Shown in pieces: positions 3,740 to 24,607 of a DNA stretch of 64,000 nt. This DNA is from Felis catus (lineage: Eukaryota). The stretch spans positions 203,360,001-203,424,000 of the forward strand of contig NC_058375.1 in NCBI RefSeq assembly GCF_018350175.1, in the 5' to 3' direction. The position numbers were made by a program, and so were the translations under genes. The notes under the pieces were generated by a model, which saw nothing but the letters and a program-made list of their open reading frames with translations, was not told the origin of the DNA and searched no databases. Position 1 is the first letter of the stretch. Each line of letters opens with the position of its first letter.

Positions 3740-5000
3740 AGTTATTGGGGCCAAAGACTTCCTGGCTGGCCAGCCCCTTCCTTCCGGAGCCTAACCCAGC
3801 CTCCCGCGGCCTCCCCGGCGCGCCCGACCCGACCGGTGCCCAGGGGGTGGGGCTGGCGGGGCTGATCCCTACCTGACGGCCTTTTTGGCGGCCTGGCCAG
3901 GCTGTGCAGGGTGGTAGGGCAAGACACGCGGCTCCCAATTCTCCCCGGCGCCTGCGCCGACCCCAGGCCTCTCGCGCTCCGCTCCCGGCTGCACCGAGTT
4001 GGGCCGGCGCGCCGCGTTCGTGTTGCCGCGCGGCGGCAGCTCAGACTCTCCTGGCTGGGGCGGCCCTGGGCCACACGGTTCCTCCACCCAGGTGACGCTG
4101 AGCAAGCTCAGAGTGAAGCCCAGGGAGATGCCCACGGCCACAGGCCCTGCGGGCCGCAGCACCGACAGCAGCAGCGATGCCCGCATGGCGCCGGGACCAC
4201 GGGCCCCGGGGCCCGGAGCAGCCCCACAGCAGCCAGAAGAGGCTCCGAGGGGGCGGGACCGGGGAGGGGGCGGATCCGAAGGGCCCGGGCCAAGCGGGCG
4301 GGCCCGCTCCCTCCCCGCCGACGCGGTCCTAGTCGAATCCCCTGCGCGGCGCTCCGATCCTCCTCCGTCCGGCGCAGGGTCCCAGCGCTCCGCGCAGGAG
4401 CCTCGACCACGGCCGCCGCTGTCCGACGTGTCACTGCGAGGTCCCCGCCCCCGGGGTGGGGTCTCGGGCTCCAGCTACCGGAGACGGAGGAGAAGGGGGA
4501 GGTTAAAGGGGAAGGACCCCCGGAAGTGCCCCCTCCTCAGTGCCGGTGAGGGAAACGCCGGAGGCGGAGTCCCCTGCCTCCCCCGGCGTGGTTGGNNNNN
4601 NNNNNNNNNNNNNNNNNNNNNNNNNNNNNNNNNNNNNNNNNNNNNNNNNNNNNNNNNNNNNNNNNNNNNNNNNNNNNNNNNNNNNNNNNNNNNNNNNNNN
4701 NNNNNNNNNNNNNNNNNNNNNNNNNNNNNNNNNNNAGCCCAAGCCCCTGCTCCTGCTCCTTTCCCTTCCCCAGACCCAGCCTGAGTCCCCAGACTCCGCG
4801 GCACTGGAGTGCCAGCCGGTGTTGGAGGCGGAGCAGCGACGCCGCCGCACAGAGAACGGTCCCTCCGGCCCAGCAGCCCCCTTCCCGGCTCGACGGACTT
4901 TTCCCGGACCCCAGTCAGCTGGGGCCTCTGGCGCTCTGCAACCCCGGACCCTCCGGCCCCTGCACAGCCTCTTTCGCTCAGAAGCTCAGGTCGCCTCCTG
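3740..5000. promoter_or_regulatory. CpG island / bidirectional promoter shared by CHPF and TMEM198
   Basis: CpG-rich; GC boxes; ETS motif CCGGAAGT near 4520; divergent genes; probable TMEM198 non-coding exon 1 donor CCG|GTGAG at 4545/4546. Confidence 0.75.
3873..4186 (-). CDS. CHPF: Chondroitin polymerizing factor, coding exon 1 (start codon, signal anchor)
   Basis: ATG in GGCGCCATGC context; MRASLLLSVLRPAGPVAVGISLGFTLSLLSV; donor GTAGG; 314 nt. Confidence 0.96.
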
Positions 5001-5350
5001 CCCAGGTAGATCTTGGACAATCCCAGATTTGGCCGCCCACAGAGGAGTCTCCTGGCTGCCTCTTTCTTATGGGCAGCACACTGTCCTCCTCTTCCCCCAA
5101 CCAGGGTCCCTTTTAACTTCTACATCTCAGCTTCCTTTAGCCAGGCACTTTTGTTTCCCTTTGTCTTTTGCTCCACTTCAGAGATGCTTCCAGAGCTGGG
5201 CATCACTCCTTTGTCCACTGGTGTCCTTGCCTAGTTCTCCCATTCCCATTCTTGCCCCCATCCTGGTGGAGACCCAGCACTCCTCCTTGACCCCAACTTA
5301 CTCTTTGTCAGGCTGACCTGGGAGGTTGACTCCCTTCCATTCCCAGCACT

Positions 5351-19541: not shown

Positions 19542-19814
19542 CTGTGATGGTGACAGTGAAGAAGGCTGAGTCATCTCCGGCGTCACACACGAACTCGCCC
19601 CCCTGCTCGGGCTGGGCCGCAGGCAGAACCAGGCGGCGGCGTGGCCCGTCGCTCTCCAGCACCAGGGCCTCGCTCTCCTCCACCTCCAGCCCATCCTTGT
19701 ACCAGCGCACAGGGGCGTCCTCCCGAGACAGCTCACACATCAGCACCACACACTCCAAGCTCACGGCGATCAAGGTCACCTCATCTCGGGGGTATATGAT
19801 GCGCACTGGGGGCT
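19542..19814 (-). CDS. OBSL1: OBSL1 exon 9 (Ig)
   Basis: EPPVRIIYPRDEVTL...FFTVTIT; 273 nt. Confidence 0.94.
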
Positions 19815-19931
19815 CTGCAGAGTGGGGCAATCACAGGCTGTCACAAACTCAATCGCCAGCCGCCCTGGCAACACGGAGTTCCTGTCGCTCGCAACAACAA
19901 GAGTGATAAGGATAATAATAACAAGGAATAA

Positions 19932-20276
19932 CAGGTCCACGATCTACCCTCCGAAAACCCTGGGGCCAGAGATGTGAATCCAGAATGCTTCAGATCCCCG
20001 GAAAAAAAGGTGCATTTATTATATATCACATACCTGCCTCTCTTAGCCCCCACTGGAGCACCGCCCCCCCCGTGCCCCATCCCCCGCCGCAACCAACCAC
20101 ACTAACATTTCGGCAGTGTGACATATACATATACTCACTCTAAACAAGATACTTAAAGAGCAGAAATAGTTTCACAGGTTTTACTGAAATGGCTCTGAAG
20201 ACCAAACTTAGAAAAGACTTTTGGTTTGGAGAGGTTTTTTGGATTTCAGAATTGTGAACAAGAGATCGTAGATCCG
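19932..20276. mobile_element. Old TcMar-Tigger-like DNA transposon fossil
   Basis: Degenerate inverted termini CAGGTCCACGATCT / AGATCGTAGATCCG followed by TA. Confidence 0.5.
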
Positions 20277-21983
20277 TAACAGCGAATACTTCTGTATGAT
20301 TTCCTAAGGTTCCAGGAACAGTCCTAAGCACTTTACACATTGAACTCTCACAGCAATCCTAAGGGTAGGTATCATTTTATCCCTGTTTTCCAGATGAAGA
20401 AATCGAGGCAAAGAGTGATTTAACCAATCTCTTTAAGGTCACAGCTGGGTCCACGTACTCGAGGGCTGGAGGAAGAGCCACCATCTGTTAAAGGGAGGCT
20501 CAGACTCTGTGAGCAGTGCTGGGATCGAAAGCCAAAGCTTGTGAACTCAGTAATGATTTTTGCATCTGTGTCTAAGAGTTGCCAGCACCTGTCTGAGTTC
20601 CCCAGGGATGCTAAACGCTGATTCTGGGAGTTCATCTCCAACTGCTCCAAAGGGGTCATTCCTCCACAGGAAAGGACCTCCTATGTCAACACTGGAGGTG
20701 ACTGGTGCACTGAGTCCGAGCCTGCCCATGCTCCCATGCGCCCTGAACATCTCCCAGAATCTTCTAGCTTCCAAGACATTTTAGAGCCCCTTTACCATGC
20801 GGCCCCCTTGTGGCTAAGCTCAGGAACTGCTCGCTTCCCGGAAACACTTTTTTGCAGAGGTGCGCATGGGCAGACGTGCTCACCAGCACACAAGTCCTCT
20901 GCCTCCACAACCCACCTCCCTAACAGGGCTTGTTCTAAGAGTCCAAGGGACGCAGGCTGGTTCTCAGGGGTCCAGCAAGGCTGGTAGATTGCAAGGTGCG
21001 GCTGCCTGGGGAGCCAAGGAGGTGAAGGGAGCAGTGGGGTGAGGACAAGGTGCCATACAGGATTGGGGTGTCCGCACAGCTGCGGGACCTCAGCTTGGCA
21101 TCAGACTTGTTTATCCCTGGCCCAAAGCCGGGCTGGCTCTGTGTGAACTTCCGGGCCGCTTGTGTGAACTTCCCGGTGAGCAATCTGGTGTTTTGTGGGG
21201 AGGCCAGGTGTGAGCTGAAATGTGTGTCTGCCATTGTGTCTGGCCAGGGCGTGGGGCTGAAGAGCTTGAAGGGGTCACTACAGGACAAAACATGCAGAGA
21301 GAGGCCTCTTTGGCTTTGTGGCTTGGGTGTTCCAGGCTGCACTCTCGTGGGTTGGGGGTGGGGGCACCCAGGCAGCTCAGCCTGGATCGAGGCATCACTG
21401 CTGGGGCAGAGCGGAGGACAGGGCGACAAGACAGTGCCAGTGCAGCCAGTGCGGTTCTTCTGTGCCACCGAGCTGTCAGGCCCTGCGAGCGCCACCCCAC
21501 CCCCCACCCGAGCTGCACATCCACACCAGGTCTGGCGCTGAGGCCTGCGGCCCCACGCTTTCCAGCACCGAACCACCGTGACTTTCACAGTCGTCTTGTG
21601 CTCTTCCAGCTTTGAACATTCCCCCATCTACCTTCGGCCCAAACCTGACCCCACTCAGCTACCTCGGCCCCTGCCCCCAAGTATCTGCCTTGAAGGCACT
21701 CCCTGCCTGCCGGCAAGGTTAGCAGCCCCCCAGCCTTGAGCTCCCTCTGTACCCCTGTCACAACACTGGACAGTCCACCTTCTGAGACCCTCTAAAGTGT
21801 CTGCCTTTCCTCCCAGGCCGTGTGCTCCCGGAGGGAAGTGAGCGTGTCTGTCTGCTTGCCACCGGGTGTCCAGAGTCCAGCCCAGGGGCGTGGCGGCTTT
21901 CTCCGCAGCCCTCTCTGACTCTCCTGTTCTCTCTCCAGCCCTCTGCTCCTTCACATCACTTGTCACGACGTGTCAACTGTGCA

Positions 21984-22001
21984 TTTATTTGTGCATTTAT
22001 T
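21984..22001 (-). terminator. Tandem AATAAA signals, probable 3' end of the short OBSL1 isoform
   Basis: TGTGCATTTATT duplicated on + strand, giving two AATAAA on the OBSL1 strand inside intron 8. Confidence 0.7.
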
Positions 22002-22010
22002 GGTTTAACA

Positions 22011-22342
22011 CAGGGGTCGCAAACTCAAATGCCCACAGGGGCCAGGTAGGTGGTCAGGTGAATGGCGGAAGGGGTCTGGGGAGAGGCAAAGAGGAATGGC
22101 AGAGGGGGAAGGGCAGAGGAATGTGGGCCCCATATTATGGGGGCANNNNNNNNNNNNNNNNNNNNNNNNNNNNNNNNNNNNNNNNNNNNNNNNNNNNNNN
22201 NNNNNNNNNNNNNNNNNNNNNNNNNNNNNNNNNNNNNNNNNNNNNNNNNNNNNNNNNNNNNNNNNNNNNNNNNNNNNNNNNNNNNNNNNNNNNNNNNNNN
22301 NNNNNNNNNNNNNNNNNNNNNACTGCCCGTTTGCGACCCCTG
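22011..22342 (+). mobile_element. hAT-Charlie-type non-autonomous DNA transposon (MER102-like)
   Basis: Perfect 14-bp terminal inverted repeats CAGGGGTCGCAAAC / GTTTGCGACCCCTG; 332 bp; degenerate target duplication GTTTAACA/GTTAACAG; 5' sequence resembles recalled MER102. Confidence 0.8.
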
Positions 22343-22684
22343 GTTAACAGCTGCCTCCCCAGCTAGACTGCAGCTCTGAGAGCAGAGATGGTGCATGTCT
22401 CACACACCAGTTACCTGCAGCACCCGGCCCGGGGTCTGGTGGCACGTGGGAGGCACCCAGTAAATGAGCCAGGGGAGCACAGCTCTTCCTGGCCCTGGTG
22501 CTGGGGAGGAGCCTGCTTCCTGGAATAGGGGCCCTGGGGTCTTCCGGGCAGGGAGCCTCGGTACATGCACCCGCAGCCCCACCTCCCTCCTCCCCAGTGT
22601 GCCGACTAGGGGGTAGGTGGCCAGCTCCCCCGAGGGCTCAGGACTGTCCTCTGGTGACCCCGGGCGGCTGGGGTGAACCCACAC

Positions 22685-22957
22685 CTGTGACAGTGACGGT
22701 GAAGGAGGCCGACTCGTCATCGATTTCACACAAGTACTCGCCGGAGTCCTCCAGCTGGACGGCAGGCAACACGAGGCGGCGGACGGTGTCCTCCTTCTGC
22801 AAGAGCAGTGCGGGGCTCTCCACCACCTCTTCACCGTCCTTGGTCCAGCGCACCTCGGCCCACGGCCGGCACAGCTCACAGGTCAGCACCACACGCTCCA
22901 AGCGCACGGCCGCCACATACACCTTGCCACTGGGGTACACGATCCACGAGGAGACAT
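22685..22957 (-). CDS. OBSL1: OBSL1 exon 8 (Ig)
   Basis: DVSSWIVYPSGKVYV...SFTVTVT; 273 nt. Confidence 0.94.
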
Positions 22958-24457: not shown

Positions 24458-24607
24458 CAGTGGTTCCCAAGCTGCCTTCCCGGAGTGATCCCCAGGCTCT
24501 ACCCTGGATAGTCTGGAGCTGGAGAGCTGGGGGGCCTGGGCGTATGCATTTATAACAAGCTTCCCAGGTGGTTCTGAAGCAGCCAGAACATGGCCTGAGA
24601 ACCACTG
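24458..24607. mobile_element. MER5-like hAT MITE
   Basis: TIRs CAGTGGTTC / GAACCACTG; internal TGCATTTATAACAAGC motif. Confidence 0.7.

Follow-up and report, generated by a model that had tools for sequence, protein, structure and literature searches.

The closest described case to the locus reported here is OBSL1 itself. Mudge et al. (2011, Mol Biol Evol; PMC3176834) report an alternative final exon of this gene, the acceptor and coding part of which lie within a CHARLIE8 element. In their account every placental genome available at the time has the exon intact and the opossum alignment is disrupted; in their supplement its length is 125 bp in both human and mouse, with 92% identity. The transposon-built exon is real and has already been known since 2011 (PMC3176834). 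This was the only paper found by literature searches tying OBSL1 to CHARLIE8 or to exonization, and the MER102 papers include none on OBSL1 by title. CHARLIE8A is equated with MER102A in Repbase and belongs to the hAT superfamily (Kojima, 2018, PMC5753468, Table 5), and a divergence of 27.9% is given for MER102a (PMC1914374). Of the OBSL1 proteins, the human isoform 3 precursor NP_001166879 is listed with 1025 aa and a sheep isoform is predicted at 1023 aa (PMC7493961).

The window analysed here is a 64,000 nt stretch of the Felis catus genome (NC_058375.1, positions 203,360,001 to 203,424,000 of the forward strand), and OBSL1 is read from its minus strand. With a probability of about 0.92, an antisense copy of a hAT element in OBSL1 intron 8 is the source of the splice acceptor, 41 codons and stop of an isoform of about 1025 residues, and of most of its UTR; the tail of this isoform is probably a short motif for binding or targeting. 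The features are as follows.

22685..22957, minus strand: OBSL1 exon 8, an Ig domain, with a phase-1 donor at 22684.
22343..22349, unstranded: second copy of the target-site duplication with one base lost, from flank comparison.
22329..22342, minus strand: terminal inverted repeat, intronic arm, 55-68 nt upstream of the acceptor.
22275..22292, minus strand: U-rich tract and CAG splice acceptor within the element; the junction matches the retrocopy and 31 proteins.
22150..22274, minus strand: coding part of the alternative last exon, 125 nt and 41 residues, an open frame in the genome's own copy of the locus.
22011..22342, plus strand (host gene reads the minus strand): non-autonomous hAT element of Charlie8/MER102 type, 332 bp, profile match at E = 1.9e-33.
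22011..22024, minus strand: terminal inverted repeat, UTR arm, ending 10 nt before the first AATAAA.
22003..22010, unstranded: target-site duplication, 8-bp copy, from flank comparison.
21978..22149, minus strand: 3′ UTR of the short isoform, element-derived to 22011, with an approximate 3′ end (the retrocopy aligns to about 21983).
21996..22001, minus strand: first AATAAA, outside the element; protein P0023 ends at the matching stop and the retrocopy is A-rich after the second 12-nt unit.
21984..21989, minus strand: second AATAAA, from the 12-nt duplication 21978-22001, read from the sequence.
19543..19815, minus strand: OBSL1 exon 9 (tblastn), the competing acceptor used by long isoforms, with 52 of 69 proteins continuing into it.

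A tblastn search with the 1025-aa and 1896-aa OBSL1 proteins maps eight coding exons upstream of the element, the last of them exon 8 (22957-22685), and exon 9 (19815-19543) beyond it. The element is thus in intron 8, where an earlier note made from the sequence alone had put it. That note located the coding part in an N-gap at 22146-22321. The frame is read there (22150-22274). The run of N is not an assembly gap, as the genome's own copy of the locus carries no N and shows zero mismatches to the window at non-N bases. An open exon and an acceptor are both present in the filled sequence.

The first codon of the tail is split with exon 8 and the frame closes with a TAG stop at 22152-22150. There are 984 residues through exon 8, which with the tail of 41 residues gives 1025, in agreement with the human isoform of about 1025 aa with a unique C-terminus after exon 8 that the earlier note names. 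Three other AG dinucleotides were considered as acceptors and rejected. AG 22322 is inside the element and in frame and would give 57 residues (16 more), but it has a weak tract and the product is absent from the fetched proteins. AG 22375, outside the element, leaves only 10 codons and AG 22272 only 9.

The 3′ end of the exon is not derived from the element. The 12-nt duplication (21978-21989 and 21990-22001) is exact and yields both AATAAA signals on the OBSL1 strand (22001-21996 and 21989-21984), as had been noticed earlier. Both signals are beyond the arm and the target-site duplication, and they are therefore host sequence. Thus the earlier attribution of the whole terminal exon to the antisense strand of the transposon holds for the acceptor, the 41 codons, the stop and most of the UTR, but the AATAAA and the last bases of the UTR come from the flank. 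The first AATAAA (22001-21996) is likely the signal in use. A further minus-strand AATAAA is found in intron 8 at 20009-20020, about 200 nt before exon 9, in a sequence with an 11/12 match to the 12-nt unit; it is possibly a distal poly(A) site, or a chance occurrence.

Two other features of the locus are recorded here. If the exon 8 donor is read through, a short intronic frame follows at 22684-22625; proteins P0043, P0045 and P0046 end in a related intron-derived tail, which suggests that intron 8 is retained in some transcripts. In OBSL1 intron 6 there is a second small inverted-repeat element (24458-24607) with 15-nt arms that are 87% complementary and 120 nt apart, which resembles a MITE of the MER5-type hAT group.

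The element shows the anatomy of a transposon insertion. The two arms (22011-22024 and 22329-22342) are complementary at 14 of 14 positions with a spacing of 304 nt, which confirms the perfect 14-bp terminal inverted repeats first reported, and the target-site duplication matches at 7 of 8 bases, one base having been lost on the right. In order-2 Markov simulations of 20 kb of sequence, a perfect 14-bp repeat within 500 nt turned up in 22 of 200 runs. The repeat by itself is thus not rare, and the element is counted as real because a family profile matches it. An internal motif of the element has 26 matches in the cat genome, and the reversed control has 0. All 26 copies were counted, and a profile built from them with the OBSL1 copy left out matches the OBSL1 copy over its length with E = 1.9e-33 (48 loci searched). 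A DNA search with the left 135 bases of the element gave no family member except a retrocopy on C11. The family label Charlie8/MER102 is taken from published accounts (PMC3176834, PMC5753468).

The family is dispersed and has a consensus of about 335 nt. The OBSL1 copy is 69-70% like the consensus in the UTR, coding and acceptor-upstream segments, and the mean likeness of the 26 copies is 65% in the UTR, 75% in the coding part and 65% upstream of the acceptor, the coding value being biased upward by a selection that favours copies with a well-preserved coding segment. The consensus differs from the OBSL1 copy in the parts that make the exon. From acceptor to stop there are 150 columns in the consensus versus 125 nt in OBSL1, and each of the three antisense reading frames is interrupted by stops in the consensus. 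An AG occurs in the consensus 2 nt downstream of the AG that is used, and CAG is found at the used position in only 1 of the 26 copies. The stop triplet is already present in the genome-derived consensus, by a weak plurality, and TAG is found in 2 of 26 copies. The OBSL1 copy is 30% off the consensus yet nearly fixed among placentals, which suggests that most of the change predates the placental radiation.

A processed pseudogene of the short OBSL1 isoform is present at C11:60703913-60704863. In it the last 204 nt of exon 7 run directly into exon 8 and then into the element-derived exon, with no introns between them, and it is the sole other match in the genome to the left part of the element. 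The similarity covers the UTR and both 12-nt units (9/12, and 6 of 7 aligned bases), and is followed by an A-rich segment and then by a purine repeat. Identity is 80-82% per segment, with a non-CpG divergence of 15.0% (JC 0.17). Introns are absent, the copy is 5′-truncated, it has an A-rich tail, it is flanked by an 8-bp direct repeat, and it carries disablements in the form of frameshifts, all as in processed pseudogenes. Other retrocopies were not found in a genome search with exon 8, which gave three matches (exon 8 itself, the C11 copy and a paralogous OBSL1 Ig exon). A SINE-like stretch (about 4865-5035 of the locus L011, in which the retrocopy occupies 3914-4864) abuts the 5′ end of the retrocopy through a (CT)n run and is without an A tail of its own. 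We take it to have the look of a carnivore tRNA-SINE, and it may be a later insertion or the result of a template switch.

The junction of exon 8 to the tail is seen in the retrocopy and in 31 of 49 fetched proteins, and this supports the spliced product. Retrotransposed copies that are inherited arise in the germ line or early embryo. Since the C11 copy carries both the junction and the 3′ end, an ancestor presumably used this splice and a 3′ end at this place in its germ line or early embryo. The retrocopy papers among the matches listed do not name OBSL1 in the main text; supplements or retrocopy databases may list the C11 copy.

The terminal arms of the OBSL1 copy are better preserved than those of its family, and the suggestion that they are unusually intact is upheld. 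They pair at 14 of 14 positions, versus 4-10 of 14 in the 26 other copies, the pair counts of which are lowered by noisy alignment of the copy ends. Copies picked by the left terminal repeat were set aside from this comparison as biased. In the family the two arms appear to mismatch at position 4: of the well-aligned ends, 5 of 7 on the left have G and 6 of 7 on the right have A, as do all 4 further right ends. The intronic arm of OBSL1 has G at this position, where 22 of 26 copies have A. With G in both arms, the OBSL1 copy displays one change towards pairing. At a likeness of 0.70, at least 26 of 28 matches have p = 0.004, a value computed after the fact.

One explanation is that the arms were kept because they pair in the pre-mRNA, with the acceptor, the coding part and the UTR held in the 304-nt loop. 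Such a loop would bring the upstream intron beside the poly(A) signal and tune the choice of last exon. This explanation survives better than the other alternatives but is unlikely. The 14 of 14 pairs in a copy that is otherwise about 70% like the consensus, and the G at position 4 in both arms, are in its favour. Secondary structure predictions are divided. The arm helix has a probability of about 1.0 in two of six windows (the element alone and 21960-22400), with a duplex of -26.5 kcal/mol, but P = 0.00 in the four larger ones (551-1061 nt), where 22430-22444, 22105-22108 and 21963-21970 compete with it and where forcing the helix costs 7.8 and 9.4 kcal/mol; the outcome depends on where the window is cut. 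Shuffling the interior leaves the arms paired in 39 of 40 folds. Thus the fold tells only that the repeat is perfect and is no evidence of function.

The conservation of the arms is also lopsided, which counts against a function of the helix. At the UTR end, in the first 28 consensus columns, none of the 26 copies reaches the identity of the OBSL1 copy, but at the intronic end 7 of 26 do. Selection of the locus for its perfect repeat, together with the noisy copy ends, also weakens the comparison with the family. A side observation comes from P0023, a protein of another mammal, which clusters with a snub-nosed monkey record. It is frameshifted in the tail and reads through the UTR, and so exposes the conservation of the UTR beside the first AATAAA: over 22047-21997 it matches cat at 16 of 16 codons and the stop. 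The upstream UTR of P0023 differs from cat by substitutions and indels, and the match over the UTR arm is consistent with a kept helix. A search for orthologous DNA in metagenome contigs gave 262 pattern matches, none of which was confirmed. That the arms were perfected and then kept as an RNA helix gating short and long OBSL1, one element having given both exon and switch, is slightly more doubtful again. Most simply, the intact arms would reflect constraint on the region upstream of the poly(A) signal and on the branch region, plus one change by chance or conversion.

The 41-residue tail is conserved. With the tail as query, 15 of 16 candidates show 80-98% identity at full coverage. Of the 31 proteins that carry the tail directly after exon 8, 16 have Logan records, and the tail is 41 residues long in all 31. 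Pairwise identity among 16 full-length proteins is 88.1% for the tail and 88.7% for the body, and 12 of 24 equal-sized body windows score above the tail. An identity near that of the Ig body and a fixed length indicate purifying selection on the tail at the protein level. A search with exon 8 plus tail gave 69 proteins, of which 52 go on to exon 9 and 11 stop with the tail, while 1 runs into exon 10 and 5 were not caught by the pattern; the named ones are all placental.

The named carriers include golden mole, tenrec, shrews and bats, and from Glires and primates squirrel, marmot, jerboa, guinea pig, naked mole-rat, rabbit, hare and snub-nosed monkey, although many of these are predicted annotations that may be projected from other species. 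The earlier note had the exon kept in primates and carnivores. It is kept, but that range is too narrow, as carriers span Afrotheria, Laurasiatheria and Euarchontoglires. Xenarthran or marsupial carriers were not found among the protein matches.

AlphaFold2 gives a good model of the Ig domain and a poor one of the tail, whose last four blocks have mean pLDDT values of 53, 57, 43 and 36, with one low-confidence strand at ELCVLL. An ESM Atlas search with the tail gave no usable match. Lysine and arginine make up 8 of the last 25 residues, a composition suggestive of a short linear motif for binding or targeting. The invariant positions are concentrated in the basic-aromatic half (K.PK...LW.RFP.WRR.AG.E), and many of the changes are conservative. 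In the reading favoured here, the tail is basic and likely disordered and probably acts as such a motif. An isoform-specific study of OBSL1 was not found in the literature searched. OBSL1 is reported to bind CUL7, the isoforms being unnamed in the text available (PMC3091842); an effect of Obsl1 splice variants on localisation is said to remain to be shown (PMC6509138); and the available part of PMC12812942 has nothing further on the short isoform.

A second explanation is that the exon is an RNA-level off-ramp truncating OBSL1 after exon 8, with residues kept through overlapping splicing and poly(A) signals and not for the peptide. The human and mouse exon DNA is 92% identical, versus 90.6% for a 276-bp OBSL1 coding exon (PMC3176834), and the tail has neither a confident fold nor a look-alike in the Atlas, all of which would fit such an off-ramp. 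However, a length of exactly 41 residues in every one of the 31 carriers, the clustering of invariant residues in the basic-aromatic half and the conservative nature of many changes argue for selection on the peptide, and the off-ramp appears improbable. That the interval contains no transposon, or that the exon is annotation noise, can draw on the repeats in 22 of 200 simulations and on the failure of the left 135 bases to match any family member but the retrocopy, but is refuted by the profile match, the 26 internal-motif matches versus 0 for the reversed control, the target-site duplication, the retrocopy and the published report (PMC3176834).

The reading of a transposon-derived last exon accounts for the locus by the following steps. 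Insertion of the element would predate the placental radiation. Read in antisense, its A-rich subterminal part may have given the U-rich tract, and one base change may have made the used AG, 2 nt upstream of the AG in the consensus. A net loss of 25 nt together with substitutions would then have opened the frame, and an AATAAA in the flanking DNA would have closed the exon, after which purifying selection presumably held it. The acceptor and poly(A) site would compete with exon 9 and in this way set the ratio of short to long OBSL1.

The additions made here to what was known are small ones, namely the C11 retrocopy, which records the splice in the cat lineage, and the arms, which are better than those of the family. 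The retrocopy is a record of the splice that is dated by divergence. If the arms do act as a helix, this would be a new way of domesticating transposon ends.

Compared with the exon of Mudge et al. (2011), the cat exon is in the same gene, has 125 nt, has its acceptor and coding part inside the element and shows placental conservation. The terminal repeats and the target-site duplication are not described in section 19 of that report, and neither are the poly(A) signal or a retrocopy, although its supplementary file 5 may say more on the element. The stop is absent from the CHARLIE8 consensus in PMC3176834 but weakly present in the cat-derived consensus. The length of human isoform 3 (1025 aa; PMC7493961, compared by length only) equals that of the cat protein through exon 8 plus tail. 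Like CHARLIE8A (MER102A), the family of the OBSL1 element is non-autonomous, with a length of about 335 bp, 14-bp terminal repeats and an 8-bp target duplication, and its copies are about 25-35% from the genome-derived consensus. Unlike CHARLIE8A, the OBSL1 copy has perfect arms and, in its coding part, is shorter by a net 25 nt. Processed pseudogenes made by L1 are an established class. The C11 copy resembles them in being intronless and 5′-truncated, with an A-rich and purine-repeat tail, 8-bp direct repeats and frameshifts, but differs in that it derives from a minor, transposon-ended isoform. Thus a fragment of a DNA transposon has moved again through RNA.
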